A DNA stretch of 64,000 nucleotides from an uncultured Spirochaetota bacterium (GTDB lineage: Bacteria > Spirochaetota > Brevinematia > Brevinematales > JAOACQ01): contig CAWAOD010000005.1 in assembly GCA_963783575.1 (NCBI GenBank), forward strand, positions 416,001-480,000, in the 5' to 3' direction. Both the position numbers and the translations under genes were made by a program. Position 1 is the first letter of the stretch. Each line of letters begins with the position of its first letter. This document shows positions 42,194-63,963 of this stretch, one piece after another. The notes beneath the pieces were generated by a model. It was not told the DNA's origin, ran no database searches, and saw only the letters and a list, made by a program, of their open reading frames with translations.

Positions 42194-42256
42194 TTGCGTA
42201 TATCACTCCGAAATTTGAGTAATATACGCAATGCGTATATATCGAGTTAAACGAAA
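42194..42256 (+). other. Putative attI-like primary recombination site
   Basis: Inverted repeat TTGCGTATAT...ATATACGCAA, third TGCGTATAT copy, then GTTAAACGAAA (G at 42246) starting cassette 1. Confidence 0.65.
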
Positions 42257-42302
42257 TTTTTGTGCCGGTTTGTTACTTATTGAAAAATAATGAGGAATAT
42301 CA

Positions 42303-42692
42303 ATGATTATTAATGCATCAAACAGATCAGTTCATGATAATTATATTGTTAATGCTTTAATTGATATTGAAAACTCGAATATAATTTTATCCACAAAATA
42401 CGAGAATGAAAATACAGTAATATTATTTGAAAATGTTTTGTGTCACAGTTTTGAAAATATAATCAACCAAAATATTATTTTAGATATTACTGAATATAAT
42501 ATTTCAGAATTTATTGATAGAATATCGCAACATTTATTAAATAATAAAAAATATTGTGATCCTCCAATTAATTGGGAAAATATTGATGATTTAAAAACAA
42601 AATTAACAAATTTGAAATATTTTGGATATGATATTTATAGTTCAATTGGTTTGAACGGTTGGGTTATTTCAAAACAAATGATTATAAAATAA
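42303..42692 (+). CDS. Cassette 1: hypothetical protein
   Basis: AT-rich ORF with RBS between cassette-end inverted repeats. Confidence 0.75.
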   Translation: MIINASNRSVHDNYIVNALIDIENSNIILSTKYENENTVILFENVLCHSFENIINQNIILDITEYNISEFIDRISQHLLNNKKYCDPPINWENIDDLKTKLTNLKYFGYDIYSSIGLNGWVISKQMIIK

Positions 42693-42729
42693 GAAGTTAG
42701 ATGCTTATACAGGCACAAAAACTTCGTTT

Positions 42730-42974
42730 AACAGCGGCTATATCGCTCCGGTGCTCGAAAAAACTTTTCAGGGCGTAACGGAGGAGAAAGAGAAAAGTTT
42801 TTCCTGCGCTCCTCGGGTTCGCCCGTTTTTGCTTTTAGTAAAAAGAGAAAGGGGTTCAAATTGACTATGATGATTATTAAAATAAAGGTTATTATTTACG
42901 GGCTCACCAAACCCGCAAACTTAAGCGCGCGGGGCTGGCGCTAAGGTTTGCGGGCTTCGTATAGCCGCACCGTT
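42730..42974 (+). repeat. attC-like linker 1 (type A, 245 bp)
   Basis: AAC-AGCGGCTATA...TATAGCCGCACC-GTT. Confidence 0.85.
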
Positions 42975-43004
42975 CTACGCAATTTTGCAAAGGATGGTTC
43001 TATT

Positions 43005-43451
43005 ATGGATAATATAGAAAAAAGATATGATATTAAGAGTGAAAAAACAATTAGTGAAATTATACTTAAAAATGGATGGGCTGATAGAATTTATTGGGAT
43101 AGAAATGATTGGTATATTGAATGGTCTGTAAAAGGTAAAAATATATTAAATAGAATTCCTAATATTCTCAATCAAATTGATGAATTAAATGATTCTGATA
43201 AGAATTGTATAAACTTTATGGTTAACTATTTTGGTATTAATAAGATTAAAAAGGATTTTGATGAAATCACTTTAAATATGCAAGAAGAAATTATAAAAAT
43301 TATTCAGAAAAGACTAATTATGAAAATACCAGATAAAATACTTGATAGTATTAGAAAAAATGGTCGTTCATATATAGCATTAGAAATGATTTTAGATACA
43401 GTAAAATCAGAACCATTAAAAGAATTAAAAAAATATATAAAGTCTTTGTAA
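43005..43451 (+). CDS. Cassette 2: hypothetical protein
   Basis: ATG 43005 after AAGGA; upstream extension lies in the repeat. Confidence 0.7.
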   Translation: MDNIEKRYDIKSEKTISEIILKNGWADRIYWDRNDWYIEWSVKGKNILNRIPNILNQIDELNDSDKNCINFMVNYFGINKIKKDFDEITLNMQEEIIKIIQKRLIMKIPDKILDSIRKNGRSYIALEMILDTVKSEPLKELKKYIKSL

Positions 43452-43473
43452 TACGCTTTGCAAAACTGCGCAG

Positions 43474-43717
43474 AACAACGGCTATATCGCTGCGGTGCTC
43501 GAAAAAACTTTTCAGGGCGTAACGGAGGAGAAGAGAAAAGTTTTTCTTGCGCTCCTCGGGTTCGCCCGTATTTGCTTTTTGGAAAAAGAGAAAGGAGTTC
43601 AACTTGACTATGATGATTAATAAAATAAAAGTCATTGTTTACGGGCTCACCACATTTGCAAGCCTAAGCGCGCGGGGCTGGCGCTAAGGCTTGCAAACGT
43701 CGTATAGCCACACCGTT
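43474..43717 (+). repeat. attC-like linker 2 (type A, 244 bp)
   Basis: Highly similar to linker 1. Confidence 0.85.
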
Positions 43718-43758
43718 GTACGAAATGGTGCAACAACTTATTAAATTAAGGATAATTT

Positions 43759-44310
43759 ATGCCTGAAAATCAACATTTAAAATCTGCTCGTAATGATTAC
43801 AATCCTGACCCTTTTTATTTTTTTGAAGAAAATGAGACCTTCAAAAGGTATGTTGTTTATAATCCTTTTTATGATGTCATCAAAAATATTTTTATTGATA
43901 TAATTAGTAATTACAATTCTGAAATTGAAATATTATTAAAAGATTTAAAGGATTATGATGAAACAGGAAAAAAAGATATAATTTGGGATCACTACTATAC
44001 TAAAACAACAAAAGATAAAATTCTAGAAGCATTGGATGTTCATTCAAAATACATATTTTATGATGGCTATCAACAATTATGCATTAGAGATTCAATAACT
44101 GAGGATTATTTTGCTTTCGATGATCATGGTATTTTATTTATCTATTCTGAAAATAAATTGATTGAAGATATTCTAAAAAAATATAAAATTAAGAACTCTA
44201 AAAATGAATTAATTCTTGAAAAACCGCATTGGCATATAAGACCTAAAGATGCAGATGATTTAAAAATTAGTTTCATAAAAGATCTTAAAATAGATAGGTC
44301 TAATGATTAA
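43759..44310 (+). CDS. Cassette 3: hypothetical protein (paralog of cassette 13)
   Basis: Shares FDDHGILFIY and HWHIRPKDAD with 63397-63939. Confidence 0.8.
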   Translation: MPENQHLKSARNDYNPDPFYFFEENETFKRYVVYNPFYDVIKNIFIDIISNYNSEIEILLKDLKDYDETGKKDIIWDHYYTKTTKDKILEALDVHSKYIFYDGYQQLCIRDSITEDYFAFDDHGILFIYSENKLIEDILKKYKIKNSKNELILEKPHWHIRPKDADDLKISFIKDLKIDRSND

Positions 44311-44331
44311 ATATGTTGCACCACTTCGTAC

Positions 44332-44545
44332 AACACGGCATAGCTGTTCCGCTCCGTCCTCGCGCGGCTCCGGGCGGTGCTCAGCCTTCGGCACATTTGC
44401 CTTTGTCATCTTTTTTGCATATTTTAAATTTAATAAAAAGGGTTATAAAATGAAATGCTTTAATATATTTAAAGGCTGGTTCTGGAGTTGCAAAAAAGAC
44501 GCCAATCGCTGACGCGAGCGGCAAACGTCAGCTATGCCTACCGTT
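44332..44545 (+). repeat. attC-like linker 3 (type B, 214 bp)
   Basis: AAC-ACGGCATAGCTG...CAGCTATGCCTACC-GTT; related to linker 9. Confidence 0.8.
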
Positions 44546-44596
44546 GTACGAAATGTCTTGGTGCCAAGATTTTAGTTAAAGGAGATTATTATAATT

Positions 44597-45082
44597 ATGA
44601 AAAAACAATTAAAAAAAGAACCTACTAATATTGAGTTTATTTATAGTGTTATAAATAATATTCGAGGATCGAAATTAAATTATTCTTGGCGTGATTCTGG
44701 TACTATCTTCTTCGAAATTGGAACTATCATTAAAAAAGATAATCGTAATCATCCAGAAGGAAAATTTTCTTTTATGATTGATTATCCATGGCGTTTTGAA
44801 AAAAGCAATGCTATTATCTGTTCTTCAGAATTTAGTACTACAGAAAGAGACAATTTTCTCCAAAACATAATTGGGAAATCAATATTAAATATTGATTTTG
44901 TTACATGTTGTAATGATTTAATTATTGAATTTAATGATTTAGTATTCCGGCAATTTTCAATTGAATCTGATTTACACTCTTGGTCATTACGTATCAGGAA
45001 TGAAAATAACGAATATTTAAAAAATGATGTAGATCATTTTTGGTTATCTTTTGAAGAAAAAAATTTCTTGATTGAATTTTGA
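44597..45082 (+). CDS. Cassette 4: hypothetical protein
   Basis: AAGGAG RBS; ORF fills the cassette. Confidence 0.75.
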   Translation: MKKQLKKEPTNIEFIYSVINNIRGSKLNYSWRDSGTIFFEIGTIIKKDNRNHPEGKFSFMIDYPWRFEKSNAIICSSEFSTTERDNFLQNIIGKSILNIDFVTCCNDLIIEFNDLVFRQFSIESDLHSWSLRIRNENNEYLKNDVDHFWLSFEEKNFLIEF

Positions 45083-45139
45083 TAAATTAATGATTATAGA
45101 AAGAAAATAATAAAACATTGGCACCAAGCCACTTCGTAC

Positions 45140-45382
45140 AACCGCGGCTATATCGCTCCGGTGCTCGAAAAAACTTTTCCGGGCGTAACGGAGGAGAAGA
45201 GAAAAGTTTTTCCTGCGCTCCTCGGGTTCGCCCGTTTTAGATTTTGATTAAAGAGAAAGGAGTTCAACTTGACTATGATGATTATTAAAATAGAAGTCAT
45301 TATTTACAGGCTCACCACATTTTCGGGCCTAAGAGCGCGGGGCTAGCTCTAAGGCCCAAAAACGTCGTATAGCCGCACCGTT
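45140..45382 (+). repeat. attC-like linker 4 (type A, 243 bp)
   Basis: Type A copy with compensatory stem changes. Confidence 0.85.
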
Positions 45383-45462
45383 GTACGCAAGCCTGGCTGA
45401 AGCTGGTTTAAATAAAATAATTCGGCATCCTTGCCGAATAAAATAAATTAAGGGGTTTTATT

Positions 45463-46254
45463 ATGATAACAAAAATATTTTATTTTTCGACAACGGGTAA
45501 TTCATTATATGTGGCTCGCACAATAGCTGGAAAATTAGGTGAAACTGAAATTATTTCTATTCCAAAAGTTATTAAAGGACAAATTAATACAGATTCTGAA
45601 AGTGTTGGAATAATATTTCCAGTTTATGCCTGGGGACTTCCTCGAATTGTTGCCGAATTTACTGAAAAACTCAAATTAAACAAAAATCAATATGTTTTTG
45701 CAATAGCTACATGTATTGAAATGCCTGGAGCCACATTAGGACAGTTAAATAAAATTTTAAATAAAAATGGATCACATTTAAATGCTGGTTTTTTAATAAG
45801 AGAAAATTTCCGTCCAAATAGTGATAATGAAATGTCTATAGTAAAATTCATTAAAAAAGCCACAAAGATAAAGCCAATTCAATTAAAAGGGAGGCTTCAA
45901 GAAATAACAGATATTCTAAAAAATAAAAAGAAGCATAAACTGGAAATGAGTGCCAAAATGGCTCAAATTTTAGGTAATTCTTTTCATAAGGTTGCAATCA
46001 AAAAATATATGGCAGCAGATTTGAATTATAAATTGGATGAAAAATGTAATTTATGCGGTATTTGTATCAAGATATGTCCTCGTGAAAATATTAAAATGGA
46101 AAATGGAAAAATTTTATGGAATCAAAACTGTGAAGGTTGTCAAGGATGTTATCAGTGGTGTCCAAAGGAAGCGATTCATTTGACAGATGGTACAGATATA
46201 AAAGTTGGGTATCATCACCCTGAAATTGTCCTTGGAGACATTGTTTTAAGATAA
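45463..46254 (+). CDS. Cassette 5: EFR1-family flavodoxin/4Fe-4S ferredoxin protein
   Basis: YFSTTGNS, FPVYAWG, CNLCGICIKICP, CEGCQGCYQWCP. Confidence 0.88.
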   Translation: MITKIFYFSTTGNSLYVARTIAGKLGETEIISIPKVIKGQINTDSESVGIIFPVYAWGLPRIVAEFTEKLKLNKNQYVFAIATCIEMPGATLGQLNKILNKNGSHLNAGFLIRENFRPNSDNEMSIVKFIKKATKIKPIQLKGRLQEITDILKNKKKHKLEMSAKMAQILGNSFHKVAIKKYMAADLNYKLDEKCNLCGICIKICPRENIKMENGKILWNQNCEGCQGCYQWCPKEAIHLTDGTDIKVGYHHPEIVLGDIVLR

Positions 46255-46436
46255 AACTGCGGAATTTTTGTAAATTAACGCCATCCTTGGCTTGGCTTTT
46301 TGTACCGATTTTCAGCAAGGCTGGAAATGATAAACTAATTTACCAGGGTAGCAATAAATGAAATTCCCATACCTGTCACAAACAGATTTCCCATAGAGAA
46401 GCTTGAAGATTACCTTTAATGAAAATTCATTAAAGG

Positions 46437-47999
46437 ATGGCAGGAATGGTGAAAAATATTATGTATCAGGACATAAAAAAACTGAAACTTTTGGGGAAAA
46501 GTAAAAATGGTGTATCCCGGGAACTGTCAATAGATATTAAGACAGTCCGGAAATATTGGACTATGAACGATGCTGAATACCAGAAAAGCCTGATGGAATT
46601 CTCTTTCCGTGAAAAAGAATTCGAAGGAATAAAAACAGATATATTGAAAGTATATGCAAAGAATGATTACATCCGGCTGAATATGTCTGCTTTGTATGAC
46701 TATTTATTGGAGGTAAAAGGCAAACTACCGGCGAATGAAAATACGATGAGGAATTTCGTACATTACCTGATTGAAAGCGGGCAGCTTACCTTGAATGAAA
46801 AGCGACGGTATTACACAAAAGTGCCTGACATGCCATATGGAAAGCAGCTCCAGCTTGATTTCGGTCAATATACCGACAGATATGGCAGAAGGTATTACAT
46901 ATTTGCCGCGGTGTTATCCGCCAGTCGTTTTAAGTATGCGGCCCTCCAGGAGAGGCCATTCCGGACAGAAGACCTGATCAATCATCTGTTGGACTGTTTC
47001 GCATATATGGGCGGGATACCGCATGAACTTGTCATCGATCAGGACTGCACGATGGTTGCGAGTGAGAACTCAGGCGATATCATCTACACGAAAGACTTTC
47101 AGTATTTCATCGGGGAAATGGGTCTTAAAATGTATGTGTGCCGACCTGCTGACCCGGAAAGTAAGGGAAAGATTGAAAACGTAGTCAAATTCATCAAGCA
47201 CGGTTTCTTCTCAGTCCGGGAGTTCAACAGTTTAATGGAAGCGGAAGAAAGCCTGATGAAATGGCTGGAAAGAAAAGCCAACGGGAGAATATCCCAGGCT
47301 ACAATGAAAATACCACTGATAGAGATTGAAACGGAAAGACCATATCTCCAATCTGTCAGGAATTCGATATTCCGTAAAGACAGGATAGGAGCAAGGGAAG
47401 AGCGCAGTGTAAGCGATAAATGCCGGATCGCAGTTGATGCAAGCCAGTATGATATTCCCGAAAAATACAGGAACGGTTCGGTGGACATCTACAAGACGGG
47501 CAGTCGGCTTTTTGTCTTTGACAGGATAACGGGAGAGCAAATCGCCGAATACCGGCTTTCAGTGATTCCGGGGCAGATTGTAACCAACAGGGCAATGATC
47601 CGGGAAATGGGAAAGAGTGTGCAGTTATTGAAAGAAGAAGTAAGCGGGTACTTTGATATTCCCGGCTGGAAGGATTTTCTTGAATGTAATTTCAGGAAGT
47701 TCAATCGTTATGTAAGGGACCAATGTCTTTCCGGAAGAAAATACTTCAGGGACAAGATAATTGATACCGGGAAGCTTACACAAGCGATCTCAAACTGCCT
47801 GGAGAGTGATAGTTATTCCATGAAGGATTTGTGGGATAATTACCTGAACTGTTTTATAACAGAAAAGGCAGAAATACCCTTGAATGTTGAAAAGATTGTC
47901 AGGCCTTCAGTGAATCCTGAACACTATCTTGAAGTAGCTAAATCAGACATCGGGAAATACCAGAGTTTCTGTGACTCCATCGGGGGCCGGCAATGTTGA
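46437..47999 (+). CDS. istA: IS21 transposase
   Basis: HTH N-terminus, QLDFG, GGIPHELVID, PESKGKIEN. Confidence 0.92.
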   Translation: MAGMVKNIMYQDIKKLKLLGKSKNGVSRELSIDIKTVRKYWTMNDAEYQKSLMEFSFREKEFEGIKTDILKVYAKNDYIRLNMSALYDYLLEVKGKLPANENTMRNFVHYLIESGQLTLNEKRRYYTKVPDMPYGKQLQLDFGQYTDRYGRRYYIFAAVLSASRFKYAALQERPFRTEDLINHLLDCFAYMGGIPHELVIDQDCTMVASENSGDIIYTKDFQYFIGEMGLKMYVCRPADPESKGKIENVVKFIKHGFFSVREFNSLMEAEESLMKWLERKANGRISQATMKIPLIEIETERPYLQSVRNSIFRKDRIGAREERSVSDKCRIAVDASQYDIPEKYRNGSVDIYKTGSRLFVFDRITGEQIAEYRLSVIPGQIVTNRAMIREMGKSVQLLKEEVSGYFDIPGWKDFLECNFRKFNRYVRDQCLSGRKYFRDKIIDTGKLTQAISNCLESDSYSMKDLWDNYLNCFITEKAEIPLNVEKIVRPSVNPEHYLEVAKSDIGKYQSFCDSIGGRQC

Positions 48000-48742
48000 A
48001 GATAAGAGAACAAATCATAACTGCGCTTACAACTCTCGGGTTGAAGGGTATGATAAAACGGATTGATGAGGAAATTGGTGAGGCTGAAAAGGCAAAAGAG
48101 TCTTATCTGAGTTTTCTGCAGAGGCTGCTTTCTCTGGAATTGAATTATAGAGTGGAAAAACGTTTTCAGCGGAATATGGCAGGAGCACACTTCCCGGTCC
48201 GCAAAGATGTGGAAGGTTTTAATTTTGAAAAAGTGAATGGAATATCTAAAATGGATGTTTCACAGCTATTGGATTTCTGCTGGATTGATAATCATCATAA
48301 CCTGTTGTTCTTTGGGTCTCCGGGGCTGGGGAAAACGCATCTGGCAATTAGTATCGGAATCCGGGCAGTTGAAAAGGGATATATTGTCTGCTTTGAAAGG
48401 ATGACTACTCTCATTAAGTTTCTGAAAACGGCGGACATCCAGAGAAGCTCTGCTTTCAGGCTGAACCGGATGATGAAGTCACACTTATTAATCATTGATG
48501 AGATAGGTTACACACCTATCGAAAAGAAGGAGGCAAATCTATTCTTTAGTCTTGTAAGTGAATTGTATGAAAAGACATCAATTGTGATAACATCGAATAA
48601 GGGATTTCAGGATTGGGCTGAAATGATGGGAGACCCGATTATGACAACCGCTCTTCTGGATAGGCTTTTACATCATTCAAATATTTATAACTTGAGCGGA
48701 GAATCTTACAGAATACAAAATTTGAATAAGGAGGTTGAGTAA
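47993..48742 (+). CDS. istB: IS21 helper ATPase
   Basis: GSPGLGKTHLA, IIDEIGY, TALLDRLLHH, GESYR. Confidence 0.95.
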   Translation: MLKIREQIITALTTLGLKGMIKRIDEEIGEAEKAKESYLSFLQRLLSLELNYRVEKRFQRNMAGAHFPVRKDVEGFNFEKVNGISKMDVSQLLDFCWIDNHHNLLFFGSPGLGKTHLAISIGIRAVEKGYIVCFERMTTLIKFLKTADIQRSSAFRLNRMMKSHLLIIDEIGYTPIEKKEANLFFSLVSELYEKTSIVITSNKGFQDWAEMMGDPIMTTALLDRLLHHSNIYNLSGESYRIQNLNKEVE

Positions 48743-48896
48743 CCATTCTTTGCCTCCTCACTATGGGAAATACTCACGTGGAAGGTATGGGGAAAACTCT
48801 TGTGAAGCATATGGGAAATACTCTTGTGGAAGGGGTGGGAAATTACCCGAGCGCAGATATGGGAAAAACTCTTGACATTTCCAAAGGCCAGCGTAC

Positions 48897-49048
48897 AACA
48901 GCGGCTATACGCTGCGGTGCGTCCTCGCGGGGCTCCGGGCGCTCCTCGGTCCTGCGGACACATTTTGCTTTGTCACGGCTTTTGCTGCGTGGGATGCAAA
49001 AGCCGCGCCAACCCTACGGGACGCAAAACGTCGTATAGCCGCACCGTT
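48897..49048 (+). repeat. attC-like linker 5 (type C, 152 bp)
   Basis: AAC-AGCGGCTATACG...CGTATAGCCGCACC-GTT. Confidence 0.82.
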
Positions 49049-49544
49049 AAACGAAAGTACGTTCGCCAGCTTAATAATTTAATGAGGTATTATGACAAAT
49101 AAAAATTTTACAAACAATGTTTTTAATAAGTTGGTTAAAAATGAAAATACTTTAACTGAATGTTTTAGAAATTTATTAGGATATAAATCATTTTTGAAAT
49201 TATTCCTTCTATTTTTAAAAAATAAATGTGGTGATATATCTTTTTCTTCAGATGAAATTGAGACACAAAAAGACTTATCTGAATATGGAAAACCTGATAT
49301 TTATATTGAAAACAATAAAACGGTAATTATTATTGAGAATAAACTTAAGTATACTTCATTAACAAATAATCAACCCTTATCATATTTACAATACTTAATA
49401 AACAATGATAAGCAATTTAAGTATTTAATCTTTATTATATCAAAAGTCTACATCCACTTAAATGAGCTAAATAATATTATTAAAGAAACTGATTCTGTTA
49501 TACCAATAAAACTTGTGTTTTGGGAAGATTTTTTAGATCAACTA

Positions 49545-50677
49545 GTGCTTAATTGCGTAAGTTAACGATAGTATTTCTTAATTGAGAACCTTTCACTTCC
49601 CGTTTTCTCCACACAAAAGGTTTTGCGGTTTCAGTGTATGCTTTAACAAATGCATCTATTGCTTCTCTCAATTCTTCCGTGTTTTTAAAACTGGCGCCTC
49701 TAAGAGCTTTTCGGCTCATAATACCAAACCATATTTCCACCTGATTTAACCAACTTGCCGAAGTAGGCGTGTAATGAAAAAAAACATTCTTATTCCGGGA
49801 TAACCATTCATCGTTCTTTTTGTGAATACAATAATTGTCTAAAATTACATGAATTTCTTTATCTTTTGAAACATCTACCACCACTCTATCCATAAACTCA
49901 AGAAATTCAATACGTCTTTTGTATTCAGTAGTTTGGGTGTGTATTAACCCTGTAGCTACTTCCAGCGCAGCAAATAGGTTCAGCGTTCCATTTCTTTTAT
50001 ATGTACTTTTGTATCCTCTTACAATTTTTCCATTATCCGTCTCTACATAGCCGGTTGTCCTTTCCAACGCTTGAATACCAGGTTTTTCGTCTACAGATAT
50101 AACCAATGCATTCATCGGCGGATTTAAATACAACCCAATAATATTTGTGGCTTTTGTCGAAAATTCAGGATCAGTGCTGACACACCAACTTCGCTGTCGG
50201 GATAAGCAAATTCCTTCTTTTCTTAAAACCCTCCATACCGCATGCGTTGATGTGTTTAAATGTTTTGCTAAAGCCGGACCATCCCAAATTGCCTGCCCGA
50301 TAGGCGGTGTTTTTTCCAGAGTTTCTAAAACTTTGTCCCTGAAATTCTGCCCATATATTTTTGGCTTTCCTGACCTGGGCAGATCATACAATCCATCAAT
50401 TCCTTTTTGCTGAAATCTTTTTTTCCAATCAATAACCGTATTTGGTCTTATGTGAAGGTCAGCCGCAATCTCAGATACATTTTGTCCTTTCAGGCTATTG
50501 ACAATTATTTTCGCCCTCTCTACAAGTCGCGCTTCCATAGTTCGGCTTCTCACCCAACTATCAAGAATAATTTCATCCGCTTTGGTGCATGTTATAACTT
50601 GCGTTTTCTTAGACATACAACCTCCTTTTTTATGTCTAAGATTATAATTAATAACGCTTATTATTGCAATTAAGCAC
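49545..50677 (-). mobile_element. IS630-family insertion sequence
   Basis: IRs GTGCTTAATTGC / GCAATTAAGCAC, TA duplication within a CTAG target. Confidence 0.9.
49549..50616 (-). CDS. IS630 transposase
   Basis: SVDEK, ILDN, HYTPTSASWLNQVEIWF. Confidence 0.93.
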   Translation of the reverse strand: MSKKTQVITCTKADEIILDSWVRSRTMEARLVERAKIIVNSLKGQNVSEIAADLHIRPNTVIDWKKRFQQKGIDGLYDLPRSGKPKIYGQNFRDKVLETLEKTPPIGQAIWDGPALAKHLNTSTHAVWRVLRKEGICLSRQRSWCVSTDPEFSTKATNIIGLYLNPPMNALVISVDEKPGIQALERTTGYVETDNGKIVRGYKSTYKRNGTLNLFAALEVATGLIHTQTTEYKRRIEFLEFMDRVVVDVSKDKEIHVILDNYCIHKKNDEWLSRNKNVFFHYTPTSASWLNQVEIWFGIMSRKALRGASFKNTEELREAIDAFVKAYTETAKPFVWRKREVKGSQLRNTIVNLRN

Positions 50678-51201
50678 TAGATCAAAGTGGCCTTTGTGAA
50701 ATAAATCCAATTATTTTTGATTTTAGATTAATTATGAAAAAGTGGTTTTATGTTTGTGAAATTGTATTTTCAATGGAGGATATTGAAATGATTGATAATA
50801 GACAAATTCCAGAGTTAATTATAAAAATCTATTCTGTAATTAATGATGTAAAAAATAATTTAGAAAATTATAATACATCAAATTTGGAAGAAAGGCCACC
50901 CGATGCAACAACAACAGGCTTTTATATTAAAGATGAAAATAAAAATATCATTTTATGGTTTGGAACTTGGTTTGATTTATGGAAAGAGAAAGGCTTTTCA
51001 CTAGCATTTGGTTTACATAAAGATACTGATAATATTATTCTGGATAAATTTAATACTTGCTTTAAAGATAAAATATTTCAATATGATGATTGGTTATTAT
51101 GTGGTATTGACAAATTAATTCTGGAAGATAAGAAACCAGTTGATAATATACTTGAACTACTAAATAACTATTTGTAAAACATGGCGAACCTACCTTCGTT
51201 T

Positions 51202-51412
51202 AACAGCGGCTATACGCTGCGGTGCGTCCTCGCTTCGGCTCCGGTCGCTCCTCGGGTTCGCCCGTTTTTGCTTTTGATAAAATAGAAAGGAGTTCAAATT
51301 GACTATGATGATAAGTAAAATAGAAGTCTTTGTTTACGGGCTCACCACATTTGCAAGCCTAAGCGCGCGGGGCTAGCTCTAAGGCCCGAAAACGTCGTAT
51401 AGCCACACCGTT
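51202..51412 (+). repeat. attC-like linker 6 (type C/A mosaic, 211 bp)
   Basis: 5' part like linker 5, remainder type A. Confidence 0.82.
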
Positions 51413-51445
51413 AAATGCAATTTTGGCCGGATTTGAGGTAAAAGA

Positions 51446-52285: not shown

Positions 52286-52305
52286 ACACGGCCAAAACTG
52301 CATTT

Positions 52306-52549
52306 AACAGCGGCTATATCGCTCCGGTGCTCGAAAAAACTTTTCAGGGTGTAACGGAGGAGAAGAGAAAAGTTTTTCCTGCGCTCCTCGGATTCGCCCG
52401 TATTTGTTTTTGATAAAAATAGAAAGGAGTTCAACTTGACTATGATGCTTATTAAAATAGAAGTCATTATTTACTGGCTCACCACATTTGCAAGCCTAAG
52501 CGCGCGGGGCTGGCGCTAAGGCTTGCAAACGTCGTATAGCCGCACCGTT
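52306..52549 (+). repeat. attC-like linker 7 (type A, 244 bp)
   Basis: Type A copy. Confidence 0.85.
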
Positions 52550-52592
52550 GTGCGAAAGTCGTGGCAGCTCTATATTAAAATAGGAGTTAGTT

Positions 52593-53162: not shown

Positions 53163-53195
53163 GTTTGTTGGTTAAATATGCCCCGACCATCGCAC

Positions 53196-53438
53196 AACAA
53201 CGGCTATATCGCTCCGGTGCTCGAAAAAACTTTTCAGGGCGTAACGGAGGAGAAGAGAAAAGTTTTTCCTGCGCTCCTCGGGTTCGCCCGTTTTAGATTT
53301 TGATAAAATAGAAAGGAGTTCATCTTGACTATGATGATTATTAAAATAAAAGTCATTGTTTACGGGCTCACCACATTTGCAAGCCTAAGCGCGCGGGGCT
53401 GGCGCTAAGGCTTGCAAACGTCGTATAGCCGCACCGTT
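53196..53438 (+). repeat. attC-like linker 8 (type A, 243 bp)
   Basis: Type A copy. Confidence 0.85.
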
Positions 53439-53520
53439 AGCTGAAAGTTACGGGAAGGGTTTAAATGAAAAATAACCGCGGCGTCCTGCCGCGATATGAT
53501 AATTATTTTTAGGAGATTTT

Positions 53521-56079: not shown

Positions 56080-56169
56080 ATATCTAATTTATTGATTAAA
56101 TAAAGGATGATTATAAACAGCGCCATCCTTGGCTTTTCTGGTTGTGCCGACTTCCCGTAACCTTCAGCT

Positions 56170-56321
56170 AACAAGGCATAGCTGTTCCGCTCCGTCCTCG
56201 CGCGGCTCCGGGCGGTGCTCAGCCTTCGGCACATTTGCCTTTGTCATCTTTTTTGCGCGTGGGATGCAAAAAAGACGCCAATCGCTGACGCGAACGGCAA
56301 ACGTCGCCAAGCTGTACCGTT
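56170..56321 (+). repeat. attC-like linker 9 (type B, 152 bp)
   Basis: Matches linker 3 without its AT-rich loop; 3' arm differs. Confidence 0.8.
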
Positions 56322-56378
56322 ATATGCAATGCCTTAAATTTTCTTGTTTTATAAATATTAGTATAATAGGAGGTTAAA

Positions 56379-56873
56379 ATGAATCCTAATGTTAATTTGA
56401 CATTATTTTCTAAGGATAGTTATCGCTCGACCCGACAAGGGAAAATGGTGCTTAATTTTAGTGCGCTCCAAATATTTCCCTTATTGTGCCCAGTAGAAGA
56501 GTATAAATGGTTCCCAGGCTGGGAATGTATAATGGTATATTCCAAAACAGGGATTGCAGAGAAAGATGCCGTCTTTTTAACCAAAGAAAAGGACGGTTCT
56601 AATATTGTCTGGACAGTTATCACATATGATCCACCCAATTTAATTGAATTTAGTATCGTAAACGGTCTGAATTCCGTCGAGAGATTCAGTATTATTTTGA
56701 CAGAGATATCTCATAAAAGTACTGAACTTGAATGGAAAATCATGAATACATCTTATTCAAAAAATAGTATTGAACAAAACAAAAATCAAAATAATGAATC
56801 TTTTAATATTTTTTTAGAAGATAGAAAAAAGGAAATGGACTACTATCTACGGACAGGGAAAATAATTCAATAA
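56379..56873 (+). CDS. Cassette 10: SRPBCC/START-like protein
   Basis: IFPLLCPVEEYKWFPGW...WTVITYDPP pattern. Confidence 0.6.
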   Translation: MNPNVNLTLFSKDSYRSTRQGKMVLNFSALQIFPLLCPVEEYKWFPGWECIMVYSKTGIAEKDAVFLTKEKDGSNIVWTVITYDPPNLIEFSIVNGLNSVERFSIILTEISHKSTELEWKIMNTSYSKNSIEQNKNQNNESFNIFLEDRKKEMDYYLRTGKIIQ

Positions 56874-56897
56874 TTATATTAATAAGGCACTGCGCAC

Positions 56898-57050
56898 AAC
56901 AGCAAGTCAGCGGTTGCGCTCGAGTACTCGCTCCACCCAAATCGCCGGGCTGGTTGAAAGCAATTAAATATGTTAATTTTTATAAATGCTTTTTGATATA
57001 ATATTTACAGCTTAATTAAATACCGGCGACTTCGCCGACTTGCACCCGTT
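56898..57050 (+). repeat. attC-like linker 10 (type D, 153 bp)
   Basis: AAC-AGCAAGTCAGCG...CGCCGACTTGCACCC-GTT. Confidence 0.75.
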
Positions 57051-57164
57051 GTACGAAAATTTCCGGGCCGAAGCTGATGATATTACTTTTCCGGCGTCCT
57101 TGCCGGAAAAATGATTTATTATTTAAAATGTATTAGAATTTATATCGATTAGTAGAGGTTTTAA

Positions 57165-58439
57165 ATGGCATTATTATCAGAAATTGAATCTGCACTAATG
57201 CTTGGAATTACAGTTGAATTATTAAATTCATATACAAAATATTGTCCAAAATCTGGCGAAAATGTTAAATTAAAATATAAAATAGTAAAAGGTATAAAAC
57301 ATTTTGAAAAAGATGATATTCTATTTTATCATAAATATTTAAACAGTCCGTGGCCTATGCCAAAAAAAGGAGAAAGACCATATATTCCTAAAGCAATCCA
57401 AGATTTTATAAAGTTTGAATCACATTATTCCTGTTCAATTTGCGGTCATATGGATAATGGTGAAATAGCACATATTGAAGCAGTTTCAACAACACTAAAT
57501 AATAGTCCAGATAATCTTATTTATTTATGTCCAAATCATCATACAAAATATGATTATGGTTACAAACCTAATAGTAATGTTACATTAGAAGAAATTCGTG
57601 CTTCAAAACTTTTAAAAAGAAATGCTTTACAAAGAGTGATGAAATATGAGTCTAATACAGTTAAATTATTAAAAGTTACATTATTAAACATAAAATCAAT
57701 CAGTGAAAAACTAGCCTTTGAAAGTGATAAAACAATGCTAGAGATTTATAATGTTGAATTACAAAACATTGTGAAGAATTTACCAGAATATATAGATAAA
57801 GCAAATGATGACGCAAAAAAAGATATAAGTTTAGTAAATGAAAAAGAACTATTATCTAAAAATGCACCAAATTTAATAAAATATTCAAATATAATAATAA
57901 AAGATTCTTCTTTGTTCAAAACATCCGTTGACTCAATAATCAAGATTTCTAACGAAATATTTATTGATTTAGATGAATATCCCTGTCCTCATTGTGGAGG
58001 AAGCGGACTAACAGGATTACTCGGTGATATATGTGTTTATTGTAAAGGTTCTTGTGTAGTCTCAAAGCAAATGGTTAATAGTTATGACTCTAATAAAATT
58101 GATGAAGTTGAATGTCCTCATTGTGGAGGAAGCGGACTAACAGGATTACTCGGTAATATATGTATTTATTGTAAAGGTTCTCGTAGAGTATCTCATAAAA
58201 AGTTTGATCAGTATGATCCAGATAAAATCGATGAAGTTGATTGCCCTCGTTGTGGGGGAAGCGGACTAACAGGATTACTCGGTGATATATGTACTTATTG
58301 TAAAGGTTCTCGTAGAGTATCTCATAAAAAGTTTGATGAGTATGATCCCGATGAAACCAATGAAGTTGAATGTCCTCATTGTAGGGGAAGTGGTCTATCA
58401 GGATTAGTCGGTAATGTATGTAAATTATGTAAAGGTTAA
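57165..58439 (+). CDS. Cassette 11: HNH nuclease with four tandem CxxCxGxG zinc-finger repeats
   Basis: CSICG..EIAHI..NLIYLCPNHH; 129-bp repeats starting 57984, 58113, 58242, 58371. Confidence 0.8.
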   Translation: MALLSEIESALMLGITVELLNSYTKYCPKSGENVKLKYKIVKGIKHFEKDDILFYHKYLNSPWPMPKKGERPYIPKAIQDFIKFESHYSCSICGHMDNGEIAHIEAVSTTLNNSPDNLIYLCPNHHTKYDYGYKPNSNVTLEEIRASKLLKRNALQRVMKYESNTVKLLKVTLLNIKSISEKLAFESDKTMLEIYNVELQNIVKNLPEYIDKANDDAKKDISLVNEKELLSKNAPNLIKYSNIIIKDSSLFKTSVDSIIKISNEIFIDLDEYPCPHCGGSGLTGLLGDICVYCKGSCVVSKQMVNSYDSNKIDEVECPHCGGSGLTGLLGNICIYCKGSRRVSHKKFDQYDPDKIDEVDCPRCGGSGLTGLLGDICTYCKGSRRVSHKKFDEYDPDETNEVECPHCRGSGLSGLVGNVCKLCKG

Positions 58440-58566
58440 TGTGTTGTAACTAAGATAGTATATAAAGAATATATCAAGAAATATGGAACTATTGGCGATT
58501 AAAGCCTCCGCCGTCCTGGGCTCCGGCTTTTTGCTTAAACATTCGGCCCGGAAAACATCGTACAAC

Positions 58567-60360
58567 GGCCTTGTAGAAAAAGTTAATTTCAGGTAATAAT
58601 CCTCCATTCCCAAACAGTTTGTTTTTTTTGATCTGTCTGGAATTACTTTATTTATATAAAACCGGGCTGAATTTACCGGCAAAGCTGCTTTTATTCCATC
58701 ACTATGCCATTATATCCCTCCATAGACCTGAATTTTCCCGATATTGTGCACAGTATTATATAATACCCATTGAATATTCACTTTTCCCTTTCCCCTCAGC
58801 GTAAATCGATCCATACCTTTACATGCCCTTATATTCCCGAATACAGGCTCAACTATAGCCATTCTTTTCGCATAAAGCTTTCTGCCTTAAGGTGTATCTA
58901 TGAACTTTCTCATTTCGTCCGAGTAATGTCTGTTATCCGCATTCAATGGCCTTTGCAACATCGTGTTGCTGTCGAACTAACGTTCGACGGCCTTTTTGGC
59001 TATATAGTAGCTCTTATGGAACCTCCGTGTTCCCAAGGTTGTTTGATTTTATTTTAATTCTTCAGGAAGTCTTTCCGGAATGGACAATTACGGCAGGACA
59101 ATAACCGGCAGATATACTTCGCATATGTAATATGATTCACCGTATGGTTATATCTGAACCTGAGTTCCTCTCCTTTCTTGCATATATAAACATTATTTTC
59201 CGGATCATATTGAAAATCATCAATTGTATACTGCCCTTTCTTCGCAGGCTTATGTCTGTCAGCGGTTTCAAACCTGCAATCGCGCTTCCTGAAATTCGTA
59301 TCCGGGATGACCGGTTTCATACCGTTTTGCGAAATATATTTCAGGTTCTTTTCGCTGAAATAATTGGTGTCCGCAGTGATTATTTTATCCTTTAAATCTT
59401 TTCCCAATTCTACTTTTGCTTTACGGATCATCCCTTTCAGGAATTCCCCCTCAGACCCGCTCCCAAAAGCTTCGGGATATACCACAACCTGATACTTCGA
59501 ATCCACTACAGAAAGTCCGTTGTAGCCCTGGATAACACCATGTGAACTCTTTATTTTCGCACTCTCGTTGTCAGTGACATTGGACTGCTTTTCACCATGC
59601 CGTGCCTTGTTTTTGGGTTTTTCACTTTCCAGAAACTTTTCTATCTTTTCCGCTTTCTTTAAAATCTTCTCGATCCGTGCCAGATCTTTTTCCTTATCCT
59701 TCTCAGGAAAACCGCCGGCCTGATCACGCTTTTCATGTTCATCAAGCATTTCCTTAACCAGGTTTTCCAGCTTCTCTTTTTTCTTCTTCAAATCCTTAAA
59801 TGTTCCGCTCCATTCCTTTGATGCATTTGACGATAGTTTGCACCCGTCCAGCGCGAACATATCCCCGCCTATGAGATTCAGTTCGTCACAAACCATTAAT
59901 ATATTCAGGAATACGGTATTTATCTCATTTTTCATCGATGATACAAAATCGGCGATGGAAGTAAAGTGCGGTATTGAATTGGCGGAAATGGCTTTGGCTA
60001 TAATATTCGTTTTACACAAATACTCGATTTCACGTGATGTAAAAATACCGCGGGAATAGCTGTAGAGTATTATTTTGAGCATAACCCGCGGATTATAAGC
60101 CGGGGCACCGGTAGCATCGTTCTTATACTTATTCTCAAAGATTTTAAGATCAATTCTGTTGTCAACAAGAAAACTGAGTGTATATTCAAATGTTCCCGGT
60201 ATAATCTGCTCATCGAATGAGACAGGTATGAGTTCCATTTGATCGTAATTAACTTTCTTATATCTTGCCATAATTGCTTTTACCTCTTGATTTTATTTCC
60301 AATATATTTTAAAGTATATACGATATTCTGTACATGAATGACGGACTTTTTCTACAGGCT
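58567..60360 (-). mobile_element. IS1182-family element, array copy 1
   Basis: IRs GGCCTTGTAGAAAAAGT / ACTTTTTCTACAGGCT; (C)AAC duplicated. Confidence 0.9.
58710..60271 (-). pseudogene. IS1182 transposase, interrupted at about 58948-59056, plus a nonsense codon at 58887-58889
   Basis: GAPAYNP, LDGCK, ADTNY; C-terminal VEPVFGNI segment separated. Confidence 0.8.
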
Positions 60361-60361
60361 C

Positions 60362-60516
60362 AACAGCGCGTAGACGCTGCGCTCCTCGGCTATCGCTAAG
60401 GCGACCGGCTGCGGCCTTAGCCTGCGGTGCTCGGGCTTCGCCAAATTTGCCTTTGGCACACATTTTTGCAAAGCAAAAAGATGTGACAAAGGCAAACTTC
60501 GTCTACGCGAACCGTT
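60362..60516 (+). repeat. attC-like linker 11 (type E, 155 bp)
   Basis: AAC-AGCGCGTAGACG...CGTCTACGCGAACC-GTT. Confidence 0.78.
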
Positions 60517-60575
60517 GTACGCCATATCGTCCAGCAAAATTGAATTATACAAATAATAATACAAATAATATGTAC

Positions 60576-60604
60576 TTGACATCATAAATAAAAAATGATA
60601 TAGT
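60576..60604 (+). promoter_or_regulatory. Sigma70 promoter of the TA cassette
   Basis: TTGACA-17 bp-TATAGT, 5 nt before the toxin ATG; ATCAT...ATGAT palindrome spans the spacer. Confidence 0.7.
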
Positions 60605-60609
60605 TATTT

Positions 60610-60972
60610 ATGTGGATTATTGATAGATCTGAAGAAATAATTAAATGGATTCAAGGATTGGATGATGATGCAAAGGAATCAATATTACAGCATTTGATTA
60701 TTCTAAAAAATATTGGACCTTCTTTAGGAAGACCATATGTTGACTTAATTGATGAAAGTAAACATAAGAATATGAAAGAATTAAGGGTTCAAAATAAAAA
60801 AAGAGCTTTTAGAATATTCTTTGCCTTTGATCCTGAAAGAAAAGCAATCTTATTAATTGGTGGAGATAAAAAAGGCAATAAAAATTTCTACAAAGAAATA
60901 ATACCAAAAGCAGATAATTTATATGACATACATTTAAAAGAATTGGAGAAAAAATATGAAAGAAAAAGTTAG
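60610..60972 (+). CDS. Cassette 12: RelE/ParE (HigB-like) toxin
   Basis: GPSLGRPYVD..SKHKNMKELR..RIFFAFDPERKAILLIGGDK. Confidence 0.9.
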   Translation: MWIIDRSEEIIKWIQGLDDDAKESILQHLIILKNIGPSLGRPYVDLIDESKHKNMKELRVQNKKRAFRIFFAFDPERKAILLIGGDKKGNKNFYKEIIPKADNLYDIHLKELEKKYERKS

Positions 60973-61279
60973 TAAGAGAGACTTTTTAGATGAATTATCA
61001 AATACTCTCTCTCCTGAAAGAGTTGAAAGAGCTAAAACAAATGCTGATAAAGAAATATTTAAGATCAGATTGTCAGAATTAAGAAAACAAATGGGAGTTA
61101 AACAAGAAGAAATAAAATCCTTTTCTCAATCCAGTATATCCAGAATAGAATCAAGAAAAGATATGAAAGTTTCAACTCTTATTGAATATTTAGAAGATAT
61201 TGGAATGGGTCTTGAAATTAAAGTATATCCAAAAAAAAGAAGTAATAAAAACAAAGAAGTAACATTATTGCGAGTCTGA
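60956..61279 (+). CDS. Cassette 12: XRE-HTH (HigA-like) antitoxin
   Basis: LSELRK..QSSISRIE..DMKVSTL..Y; overlaps the toxin. Confidence 0.88.
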   Translation: MKEKVSKRDFLDELSNTLSPERVERAKTNADKEIFKIRLSELRKQMGVKQEEIKSFSQSSISRIESRKDMKVSTLIEYLEDIGMGLEIKVYPKKRSNKNKEVTLLRV

Positions 61280-61312
61280 TTCTACCGACAGCTGGACGAT
61301 ACGGCGTACAAC

Positions 61313-63106
61313 GGCCTTGTAGAAAAAGTTAATTTCAGGTAATAATCCTCCATTCCCAAACAGTTTGTTTTTTTTGATCTGTCTGGAATCACTTTTTTTT
61401 TATAAAACCGGGCTGAATTTACAGGCAAAACTGTTTTTATTCCATCACTATGCCATTATATACCTCCATAGACCTGAATTTTCCCGATATTGTGCACAGT
61501 ATTATATAATACCCATTGAATATTCACTTTTCCCTTTCCCCTCAGCGTAAATCGATCCATACCTTTACATGCCCTTATATTCCCGAATACAGGCTCAACT
61601 ATAGCCATTCTTTTCGCATAAAGCTTTCTGCCTTCAGGCGTATCTATGAACTTTCTCATTTCGTCCGAGTAATGTCTGTTATCCGCATTCAATGGCCTTT
61701 GCAACATCGTGTTGCTGTCGAACTAACGTTCGACGGCCTTTTTGGCTATATAGTAGCTCTTATGGAACCTCCGTGTTCCCAAGGTTGTTTGATTTTATTT
61801 TAATTCTTCAGGAAGTCTTTCCGGAATGGACAATTACGGCAGGACAATAACCGGCAGATATACTTCGCATATGTAATATGATTCACCGTATGGTTATATC
61901 TGAACCTGAGTTCCTCTCCTTTCTTGCATATATAAACATTATTTTCCGGATCATATTGAAAATCATCAATTGTATACTGCCCTTTCTTCGCAGGCTTATG
62001 TCTGTCAGCGGTTTCAAACCTGCAATCGCGCTTCCTGAAATTCGTATCCGGGATGACCGGTTTCATACCGTTTTGCGAAATATATTTCAGGTTCTTTTCG
62101 CTGAAATAATTGGTGTCCGCAGTGATTATTTTATCCTTTAAATCTTTTCCCAATTCTACTTTTGCTTTACGGATCATCCCTTTCAGGAATTCCCCCTCAG
62201 ACCCGCTCCCAAAAGCTTCGGGATATACCACAACCTGATACTTCGAATCCACTACAGAAAGTCCGTTGTAGCCCTGGATAACACCATGTGAACTCTTTAT
62301 TTTCGCACTCTCGTTGTCAGTGACATTGGACTGCTTTTCACCATGCCGTGCCTTGTCTTTGGGTTTTTCACTTTCCAGAAACTTTTCTATCTTTTCAGCT
62401 TTCTTTAAAATCTTCTCGATCCGTGCCAGATCTTTTTCCTTATCCTTCTCAGGAAAACCGCCGGCCTGATCACGCTTTTCATGTTCATCAAGCATTTCCT
62501 TAACCAGGTTTTCCAGCTTCTCTTTTTTCTTCTTCAAATCCTTAAATGTTCCGCTCCATTCCTTTGATGCATTTGACGATAGTTTGCACCCGTCCAGCGC
62601 GAACATATCCCCGCCTATGAGATTCAGTTCATCGCAAACCATCAGTATATTAAGGAATATGGTATTTATCTCATTTTTCATCGAAGAAACAAAATCGGCG
62701 ATTGAAGTAAAGTGCGGTATTGAATTGGCGGAAATGGCTTTGGCTATAATATTCGTTTTACACAAATATTCGATTTCACGTGATGTAAAAATACCGCGGG
62801 AATAGCTGTAGAGTATTATCTTCAGCATAACCCGCGGATTATAAGCCGGGGCACCGGTAGCATCGTTCTTATACTTATTCTCAAAGATTTTAAGATCAAT
62901 TCTGCTGTCAACAAGAAAACTGAGTGTATATTCAAATGTTCCCGGTATAATCTGCTCATCGAATGAGACAGGTATGAGTTCCATTTGATCGTAATTAACT
63001 TTCTTATATCTTGCCATAATTGATTTCCCCTCTTGATTTTATTTACAATATATTTTAAAGTATAACCGTTATTTTGTACATGAATGACGGACTTTTTCTA
63101 CAGGCT
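61313..63106 (-). mobile_element. IS1182-family element, array copy 2
   Basis: Same ends and length as 58567-60360; (C)AAC duplicated. Confidence 0.9.
61456..63017 (-). pseudogene. IS1182 transposase split into 405-aa and about 80-aa parts by a structured insert (about 61694-61802)
   Basis: ORFs 61800-63017 and 61456-61707 are in different frames with stops in all frames between them. Confidence 0.75.
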
Positions 63107-63107
63107 C

Positions 63108-63351
63108 AACAGCGGCTATATCGCTCCGGTGCACGAAAAAACTTTTAAAGGCGTAACGGAGAAGAAGAGAAAAGTTTTTCCTGCGCTCCTCGGGTTCGCC
63201 CGTTTTTGCTCTAAGTTAAAAGAGGAAGGAGTTCAAATTGACTATGATAATTAATAAAATAGAAGTTATTGTTTACGGGCTCACCACATTTGCAAGCCTA
63301 AGCGCGCGGGGCTTGCGCTAAGGCTTGCAAACGTCGTATAGCCGCACCGTT
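63108..63351 (+). repeat. attC-like linker 12 (type A, 244 bp)
   Basis: Type A copy. Confidence 0.85.
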
Positions 63352-63396
63352 GTACGAAATGGTGCAACGCTTTTTAATATAATTTAAGGAGTATTT

Positions 63397-63939
63397 GTGA
63401 ACAATGATCCAATGAAATCAGCTAGAGAAGATTATAAACCTACTCCATTTTACTTTTCTGAAGAAAATAATAATTTTAAAAGATATGTTGTTTATAACAA
63501 TTCATTTGAAATCATTAAACAACTATTAAAAGAAATAATAAGTTCCTATGATAATATAATAGAAATATTATTAAAAGATTCTCAAGGTTATGATGATAAA
63601 AAGGAAGAAGATATTTGGGACAGATATTATTCAGAAACCACAAAAGAAAACATTTTAAAATTACTTGAAATTCATTCAAAATATATTTTCTTTGATGGAA
63701 ATAATCAATTATGCATAAAAGATTCATCAACTGGTGATTATATTTCTTTTGATGATCATGGAATTTTATTTATTTATACTGATAAGTTTATTGATGACTT
63801 ATTATTAAAAAATGGAATAGAAAAAAAGAAAAATGAATTAATTTATGATCAAGGTCATTGGCATATAAGACCAAAAGATGCTGATGTATTAATGAATAAT
63901 TTTATTAAGGACTTACAATTAAAAAAGCTTGAAGATTAA
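63397..63939 (+). CDS. Cassette 13: hypothetical protein (paralog of cassette 3)
   Basis: AAGGAG RBS, GTG start; colinear similarity to 43759-44310. Confidence 0.8.
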   Translation: MNNDPMKSAREDYKPTPFYFSEENNNFKRYVVYNNSFEIIKQLLKEIISSYDNIIEILLKDSQGYDDKKEEDIWDRYYSETTKENILKLLEIHSKYIFFDGNNQLCIKDSSTGDYISFDDHGILFIYTDKFIDDLLLKNGIEKKKNELIYDQGHWHIRPKDADVLMNNFIKDLQLKKLED

Positions 63940-63963
63940 ACATGTTGCGCCACTTCGCACAAC

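Follow-up and report, generated by a model that had tools for sequence, protein, structure and literature searches.

In integrons, only the attC site's folded bottom strand is cut, within the AAC of the R' box, and cutting of the top strand would invert the cassette (PMC5027507). The choice of strand is enforced by extrahelical bases that are read by the I2 element of the integrase (PMC7790495, PMC4792948). It has also been ascribed to the extrahelical bases, the central spacer and the terminal structure, and the R box is described as a 7-bp motif with the consensus GTTRRRY/RYYYAAC (PMC5027507). The same source reports a general excess of bottom-strand G:T mispairs in attC sites (1.24 versus 0.39 per site). 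Where a genome had no IntI, Cury et al. came across 21 recombinases of other kinds close to attC sites and did not accept them as IntI (PMC4889954). This work describes an integron-like array in a 64,000-nucleotide stretch from an uncultured Spirochaetota bacterium of the Brevinematales (GCA_963783575.1, contig CAWAOD010000005.1, positions 416,001 to 480,000; hereafter the window, to which all coordinates refer). The ends of its cassettes pair with each other over about 20 bp and bear a fixed mispair at position 11, and the recombinase encoded beside them lacks I2. Our literature search, which left most subscription papers and supplements outside its reach, found neither I2-less arrays nor extended R stems nor a fixed wobble described, and the system is not mentioned in the portions consulted of PMC9668308, PMC8618304, PMC7439510, PMC13616975, bioRxiv 2024.07.02.601686 and PMC3607928.

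The array is laid out on a single strand. A tyrosine recombinase gene (from 41129) is followed by an attI-like site and by 13 single-gene cassettes, each with GTT at its start and AAC at its end, parted by AAC...GTT hairpin sites; a 14th cassette lies just beyond the window edge. The intercassette cores measure 146-239 bp and are predicted to form branched hairpins with unequal spacers. Ten intact cores fold in this way and three are broken by insertion sequences (IS) placed directly after the AAC. An earlier note on this DNA had claimed that every cassette carries its own terminal inverted repeat of 18-25 bp, with G at position 8 and an invariant mismatch at position 11. All 13 starts and ends were located where that note had placed them, and its arm matches proved exact (23/25 in c4, 19/20 in c7, 21/22 in c9 and in c12). 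When positions are counted from the G of GTT and the end is read as its reverse complement, position 8 is G in both arms of 13/13 cassettes and position 11 is A at the start and G at the end, again in 13/13 (hereafter A/G11); the 14th cassette has both features. With A at the start and C at the end of the top strand, the two ends meet as A·C in that strand and as G·T in the bottom one. The claimed length stands for most cassettes (median 22 bp) and is too generous for c5, which is cut by an IS, and for c10 (14/18 matches). As they stand, the paired lengths of c1 to c13 are 24, 21, 21, 30, 15, 23, 25, 20, 22, 18, 25, 22 and 20 bp, and the c5 arm reaches about 22 bp only after in silico removal of its IS21 element.

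These long, wobble-marked cassette ends are a real, non-random feature of the array. In a permutation test on 14 cassettes (c5 with the IS removed), own ends matched at 131/154 of positions 12-22, compared with 51 on average and 100 at most over 100,000 permutations. The matches at positions 23-30 (42/112, a count reached in 6,422 of the 100,000 permutations) are at background level, own-end identity having dropped to that level beyond position ~21-22. As a control, 26,901 GTT/AAC pairs from window positions 1-41000 were scored, the best of which has 13/17 matches at positions 4-20; 11/13 cassettes have 14-16 of 17, the two others being c5 and c10. The arm sequences do differ among cassettes, as had been noted, with 3-4 Watson-Crick pair types at each of positions 13-21, and non-own arms share an identity of only 0.2-0.5 at positions 12-20. 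A pattern scan of the host genome (G000) gave 47 rows, mostly false and dropped by eye, and left eight further cassette starts with true site context outside the window; G8 and A/G11 are present in 8/8 and full own arms in five. The R box consensus given above is not followed, as position 5 is T in 10/14 starts, which mostly read GTTGTAC. The recombinase gene, the attI-like site and the cassettes are located as follows, all on the forward strand.

41129 to 42191 (end approximate), forward: tyrosine recombinase gene, found as three tblastn pieces in three reading frames and lying in cassette orientation
42190 to 42248, forward: putative attI-like site, its function suggested by sequence, with the crossover triplet GTT at 42246
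42246 to 42732, forward: c1, 129-amino-acid (aa) open reading frame; arms 42246-42269 and 42709-42732; attC-like core 42733-42971
42972 to 43476, forward: c2; arms 42972-42992 and 43456-43476; core 43477-43714
43715 to 44334, forward: c3, encoding 183 aa and homologous to c13; arms 43715-43735 and 44314-44334; core 44335-44542
44543 to 45142, forward: c4; arms 44543-44572 and 45113-45142 (23 of the first 25 bases match); core 45143-45379
45380 to 48899, forward: c5, encoding a flavodoxin/4Fe-4S protein; 5' arm starting at 45380, 3' arm interrupted by IS21; core 48900-49045
49046 to 51204, forward: c6, PD-(D/E)XK nuclease gene broken by an IS630-like element; arms 49046-49068 and 51182-51204; core 51205-51409
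51410 to 52308, forward: c7; arms 51410-51434 and 52284-52308 (19 of the first 20 bases match); core 52309-52546
52547 to 53198, forward: c8, ankyrin repeats; arms 52547-52566 and 53179-53198; core 53199-53435
53436 to 56172, forward: c9, ResIII helicase-HNH protein, 852 aa; arms 53436-53457 and 56151-56172; core 56173-56318
56319 to 56900, forward: c10, weakest arms, 56319-56336 and 56883-56900 (14/18); core 56901-57047
57048 to 58566, forward: c11, HNH protein with CXXCXGXG repeats; arms 57048-57072 and 58542-58566; an IS has displaced the core
60514 to 61312, forward: c12, Gp49/RelE-like and helix-turn-helix gene pair; arms 60514-60535 and 61291-61312
63349 to 63963, forward: c13; arms 63349-63368 and 63944-63963

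The cassette ends were compared across 200 loci with I2-less homologues of the recombinase and 64 loci with classical IntI, four of which were taken from a set of 13 (homologous loci carry L-numbers). Sites were called from inner hairpins and inner flank profiles only, to avoid circularity; duplicates were removed, genes had to fill the interval, and pairs were kept at ≥ 3/4 matches at positions 4-7, a filter that five rows failed. The final set comprised 77 I2-less cassettes in 25 loci and 127 classical cassettes in 31 loci. A/G11 is found in 68/77 of the former versus 2/127 of the latter, distributed as 20/20 in Bacillota, 12/14 in spirochaete and 36/43 in Bacteroidota-dominated arrays on the one side and as 0/41 in same-phylum and 2/86 in mostly proteobacterial arrays on the other. 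It marks the majority of cassettes in 19/25 I2-less loci versus 0/31 classical loci and, when the nine exceptions were inspected by eye, six proved to keep A/G after a one-base bulge. Median own-end pairing is 19 bp in Bacillota, 19 bp in spirochaete and 14 bp in Bacteroidota-dominated arrays, compared with 8 and 10 bp in the two classical sets, where single cassettes pair up to 18-19 bp; the 20-22 bp of the window lie near the upper limit of this spread. Some pairing past 7 bp is thus ordinary, whereas the wobble and the pairing beyond the wobble are not. A separate finder that used own-end matches only, with no condition on position 8 or 11, recovered G8 with A/G11 in 8 of the first 80 loci. 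The earlier note had looked to homologous arrays as the place where its claim might fail; these keep both the extended complementarity and the wobble. A pattern search of 11 same-family genomes gave matches in four, yet the fetched regions held no clean cassette pairs. G8 was rejected as a family-wide rule and is clade-specific, with G in both arms of 19/20 Bacillota, 14/14 spirochaete and 19/43 Bacteroidota-dominated cassettes. Position 20 is T/G in 14/20 cassettes of the Bacillota arrays L004, L020 and L024, a second conserved mismatch, and the cassettes of the Chloroflexota loci L010, L018 and L019 are more like classical ones.

The register of the ends recurs in the inner boxes of the site. 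Counted from the spacer outward, the four boxes R', R'', L' and L'' all have G at position 1, often G at 8, and a purine at 11. A mirror of the wobble, with A at position 11 of L'' and G in the reverse complement of L', is found in 45/89 ungapped I2-less cores versus 2/48 classical ones. In a separate count by core type, it was present in 34/60 Bacteroidota-type and 10/17 Bacillota cores. Pairing of the L stem in the window is interrupted at about position 9, and no bulge is present in many homologous L stems. The proposal that the L box always has an 'inactive' G:C at position 11 was rejected, as many homologous L boxes have the wobble. The attI-like site consists of a 19-bp near-palindrome of two head-to-head, arm-like boxes just upstream of the crossover GTT, and a third, inverted arm copy at ~42193-42203 lies around a small hairpin; these copies carry G8. 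Comparable head-to-head boxes precede the first GTT in L025, L257, L009, L030 and L033. The first GTT stands just past the recombinase gene, with arm-like repeats and no attC core before it, and an I2-less gene directly precedes the first GTT in many phyla. The shared register of the boxes may point to a protein-binding arm of 11 positions, a length that presumably fits the arms of Xer-type sites.

Judged from its sequence, the recombinase beside the array is not a classical IntI, which is the key context for the cassette ends. It comprises a HARP-like N-terminal domain, a SAM-like domain and a catalytic domain without the I2 insertion, and its nearest homologues come from Brevinematales and other Spirochaetota records. 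The stretch that bears I2 in classical enzymes, from the KG..R to the H.LRH motif, measures 65 residues in the window and 64-68 residues in 45/45 homologues, compared with 106-107 in 14/15 IntI (164 in the remaining one) and 72 in two host Xer-like proteins; the I2 helix is absent from all 45 homologues and from the window piece. The catalytic residues R204, K229, H294, R297, H320 and Y329 are invariant in 30 intact homologues and make up the R-K-H-R-H-Y set. All six intact homologues that were scored fall under the cut-off of the integron model TIGR02249, which they match in two stretches, and the alignment of the recombinase to 2A3V is split as well; four of the six pass the cut-off of the XerA-like NF040815, with scores above those on the integron model. 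The predicted model of one homologue (predicted local distance difference test, pLDDT, 86) has VchIntIA (2A3V) as its best fold match. In quick trees the I2-less family groups with IntI, apart from host Xer, and free trees nest IntI inside the family, although the data do not reject the family as one clade (approximately unbiased test, p-AU 0.435; 46 of 66 rows, two outgroup rows, quick trees); the 'array' label in one tree included five rows without a verified array. The host genome encodes one gene of the I2-less family and separate Xer-like genes, and no match in it rises above the TIGR02249 cut-off (best E 2e-28). Weak Pfam HARP matches were obtained for the window gene (N-terminal domain 41129-41350) and for 4/11 proteins scanned. 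The predicted first 74 residues resemble XPB (Z 7.3, root-mean-square deviation (rmsd) 2.5, 58 aligned), UvsW (Z 7.0) and the HARP domain of SMARCAL1 (Z 4.9, rmsd 1.8, 49 aligned), every score for this likeness lying below its cut-off or under Z 8. A dependence of long arms on the HARP-like domain was rejected, as L020 and L024, without a HARP match, keep 19-bp arms and the wobble. As a side observation among the classical loci, L090 (G108:C33:33360-35958) has two divergent intI genes side by side.

The folds of both strands of in silico circularised cassettes, which the earlier note had proposed as a check, were predicted. The bottom strand is more stable in 10/10 intact window junctions, by 0.6-8.2 kcal/mol, and in 70/72 homologous circle junctions. 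In the array, the same site is predicted to be 2.3-16.7 kcal/mol less stable than at the circle junction. As the stem is cassette-specific, its outer part can form only in the excised circle or across a looped-out gene, which bears out what the earlier note had proposed. For the arm duplex alone, the bottom strand is better by just 1.5 kcal/mol on average, and the wobble adds so little energy that a read-out by protein is likelier than one by folding energy. Wobbles were also counted at positions 4-10, where they lean to the bottom strand by 9 to 1.

The supposed terminal inverted repeat is best read as the R box of an attC-like site with a clade-specific extension. We consider it reasonably probable that the locus is an integron-like array run by an I2-less recombinase, with a folded attC-like site, a strand choice based on the wobble and a long stem that favours the circle. 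By analogy with integrons, the site is very probably recombined as a folded bottom strand that is cut in AAC. Positions 1-11 would then be the binding arm of the recombinase, and the enzyme would need T at position 11 of the strand that it cuts; that it reads this T is a proposal to which we give slightly less than an even chance. Two places would offer T11, namely attI, whose double-stranded arm has A:T, and the bottom-strand fold, which has G·T; the top-strand fold, with A·C, would not, nor would R'' and L' as double-stranded arms, with G:C. A11 would be fixed because the cassette start has two roles, that of R' in the fold and, in double-stranded attI, that of the right arm (A:T), and C11 at the end (G on the bottom strand) because it offers no T on the top strand yet keeps the pairing on the bottom strand. 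A/G would be the sole option that keeps T on R', removes T from the top strand of R'' and still closes the bottom stem; since it would meet all three demands, strand and orientation could be selected without extrahelical bases or I2, and the G·T wobble may replace the strand choice that these provide. Behind the often mismatched position 10 and the wobble, positions 12-20 would clamp the stem, a role that we regard as evenly balanced between true and false. They would pair fully only when a cassette's own ends meet, which would favour the excised circle as product and also as substrate for insertion at attI. We infer both strand choice and directionality from the pattern of bases.

Several observations weigh against this proposal. 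The local recombinase gene is frameshifted and split over three frames. The strict pipeline yielded cassettes from just 25 of the 200 I2-less loci, many of the 200 end at contig breaks, an array was seen in none of the small Patescibacteria-type homologues, and related genomes and loci are not independent samples. Among the eight extra cassettes of the host genome, three have A/G11 yet unmatched arms. The arms of Bacteroidota end at ~14 bp, so that 20 bp are not needed family-wide, and in L001 the first cassette has ~22 bp of pairing that includes a bulge and no clear wobble. Among the I2-less loci of Chloroflexota, L010, L019 and most cassettes of L018 show ends of 10-12 bp that lack the wobble, which means that loss of I2 does not force it. 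The mirror in the L box is lacking in the window (0/2 ungapped cores) and present in 3/9 other spirochaete sites; L'', near which classical sites have two or three extrahelical bases, has one extra base in five of the ten intact window cores, none in two and other layouts in three. The predicted preference for the bottom strand is not special, as classical sites share it (37/41 and 71/83), and mismatches at positions 12-18 show no bias to that strand (1:0, 4:3 and 10:11).

That last point would also be expected if positions 12-20 were the scar of cassette birth, one end having been copied from the other at packaging, with no later role and an incidental wobble; A11 would then serve the use as attI arm and G11 would be inherited from an L'-type box, as two separate sequence needs. 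We regard this as unlikely, though as an explanation to be taken seriously. It agrees with the sharp, clade-fixed end of the pairing, which in Bacillota goes from 0.90 at position 19 to 0.20 at position 20, and with the history of c12. Among 11 loci homologous to c12, one has a clear cassette (L322) and one a doubtful one (L325); the c12 genes stand without arms in L316, at 85% identity, and in L322 within a cassette with different 18-bp arms and A/G11, so that arms are acquired at capture and kept thereafter, and not carried along with the gene. In contig C10, a cassette whose gene is unrelated has arms related to those of c9, two changes being concerted, which copying explains as well. However, the copy mechanism would have to spare position 11 every time, and the wobble outlasts one-base insertions and recurs in the L box. 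Moreover, c3 and c13 encode proteins that are 59% identical, whereas their start arms are identical at 20/20 positions, diverging at position 21, and their end arms at 18/20 (38/40 in total), which suggests that these arms are under selection. Homologues of c3 and c13, sought for compensatory changes, were found in one other genome out of 400, without arms there, and none was confirmed in metagenome contigs.

The other explanations dispense with the folded bottom strand or with the I2-less enzyme. It is improbable that the arms are inverted sites used in double-stranded DNA, as Xer/dif sites and the ends of conjugative transposons are, with no need of a folded strand. Xer/dif sites are inverted arms of fixed sequence around a short spacer, and arms of that type were not found here, as they vary between cassettes and enclose cores of 146-239 bp. 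The higher score of the enzyme on NF040815, the recurrence of G8 in the double-stranded boxes of the attI-like site and the absence of I2, which is called necessary for single-strand recombination (PMC7790495), would suit such use; yet positions 12-20 vary between cassettes while pairing within each, which a sequence-reading protein would not need, the wobbles lean to one strand, and the cores are branched hairpins with unequal spacers. We hold it very improbable that a classical IntI acts in trans on what is an ordinary integron array, the long ends being normal R-box pairing. Classical cassettes do pair past 7 bp, and the assembly of the host genome is 89.85% complete, but it holds no IntI match above the cut-off, A/G11 is nearly confined to the I2-less cassettes, and the gene directly before the first GTT lacks I2 in many phyla. 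A stem that acts in RNA, where it would close the transcript of the cassette and serve either regulation or an RNA step of cassette birth, deserves equally little credence: the arms bracket each gene on the transcribed strand, but that strand has A·C as its fixed pair and, with DNA parameters, folds less stably in 10/10 circles, the stem runs unbroken into the GTT/AAC crossover triplet, and an Rfam scan of the window gave 0 matches. Terminal inverted repeats of a transposon were ruled out, as each cassette has its own arm, no duplication is found at cassettes abutting attC-like cores, and the transposases present belong to separate IS elements.

Set against these, the reading of an I2-less, integron-like array would have wider consequences. 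Tentatively, and with less confidence than we place in that reading itself, we propose a second, widespread integron code, in which I2-less recombinases select the folded bottom strand via the T of a symmetric G·T wobble 11 bases out and a long outer stem drives cassettes to the circle; the family is perhaps the stock from which I2-bearing IntI arose. If so, single-strand cassette recombination would predate I2, and Bacillota and Bacteroidota would have complete integron-like platforms that are missed by IntI profiles. The accepted view is that docking of extrahelical bases by I2 enables recombination of a folded single strand and avoids the second cut (PMC7790495, PMC4792948), and that a recombinase which lacks I2 does not count as an integron integrase even if it lies close to attC sites (PMC4889954), whereas the I2-less family heads large arrays in several phyla, at sites with a different fixed asymmetry. 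The position-11 rule would offer a one-base, directly testable account of strand choice and a signature with which to find such arrays in clades reported without complete integrons. It may also give a handle on the origin of single-strand recombination and on cassette birth, with arms added at capture and of clade-fixed length.

The IS elements that interrupt the array outside c6 are located as follows; we take the name IS1182-like from the pairing of the DUF772 and DDE domains.

46322 to 48883, forward: IS21-family element (transposase and IstB) within the 3' arm of c5, with a 5-bp target duplication
58567 to 60361, reverse: IS1182-like element (DUF772 and DDE) directly after the AAC of the c11 site, with AAC repeated at its far end; rest of core to 60513
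61313 to 63107, reverse: second IS1182-like copy at the same point of the c12 site; rest of core 63108-63348
from 63964: third IS1182-like copy, directly after c13

Sixteen matching left ends of the IS1182-like element are spread over seven contigs of the host genome, contig C9 has a further copy of the c11 end, and islands of cassettes distant from the integrase are found in C4, C9, C10, C13 and C16; the element seems to carry cassettes off the array. Two sites of the host genome have ATC instead of AAC (C10:79230-79836 and C12:24127), and the first of these cassettes, whose arms still pair, may be locked in place. The cargo of the window includes defence- or addiction-like genes: the ResIII helicase-HNH gene (53521-56079), the HNH gene with CXXCXGXG repeats (57165-58439), the PD-(D/E)XK nuclease gene split by the IS630-like element (49092-51177) and the Gp49/RelE-like pair of c12 (60610-61279), which is a probable toxin-antitoxin pair. 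A short hairpin motif of the type GGCRTCC(T)TGCC lies near both ends of c5, c9 and c11, inside the arms (45424, 46280, 53480, 56122, 57093 and 58510), and nowhere else in the window.

Compared with known systems, the array appears to work like an integron attC/attI system, yet it departs from the classical family in the absent I2 and in the R box consensus. It resembles the classical attC sites of IntI1 and VchIntIA (PMC5027507, PMC7439510, PMC4792948) in its single-gene cassettes of one orientation, its AAC...GTT hairpins and the pairing of own ends; a more stable bottom strand with G·T mispairs and a putative attI-like site with accessory repeats beside a tyrosine recombinase are likewise shared with classical integrons. 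It differs in own-end pairing of ~20 bp instead of 8-10 bp, in the fixed A/G11 (13/13 versus 2/127), in spacers of 4/6 or 4/7, in the lack of I2 and in the extra N-terminal domain, which moderately resembles HARP-fold domains such as SMARCAL1 HARP, the N-terminal domain of XPB and T4 UvsW. The chromosomal integrons with inverted integrases in Treponema have integrases that carry I2 (PMC3607928, PMC4889954), and in the classical-IntI arrays sampled from that phylum the median pairing is 8 bp, A/G11 is absent (0/41) and the cores measure ~52 bp as called by a noisy hairpin finder. With XerA, XerC and XerD (NF040815; 4A8E, 5HXY) the recombinase shares a catalytic domain without insertion, whereas the sites of the I2-less family are variable hairpins in arrays and not fixed double-stranded sites.

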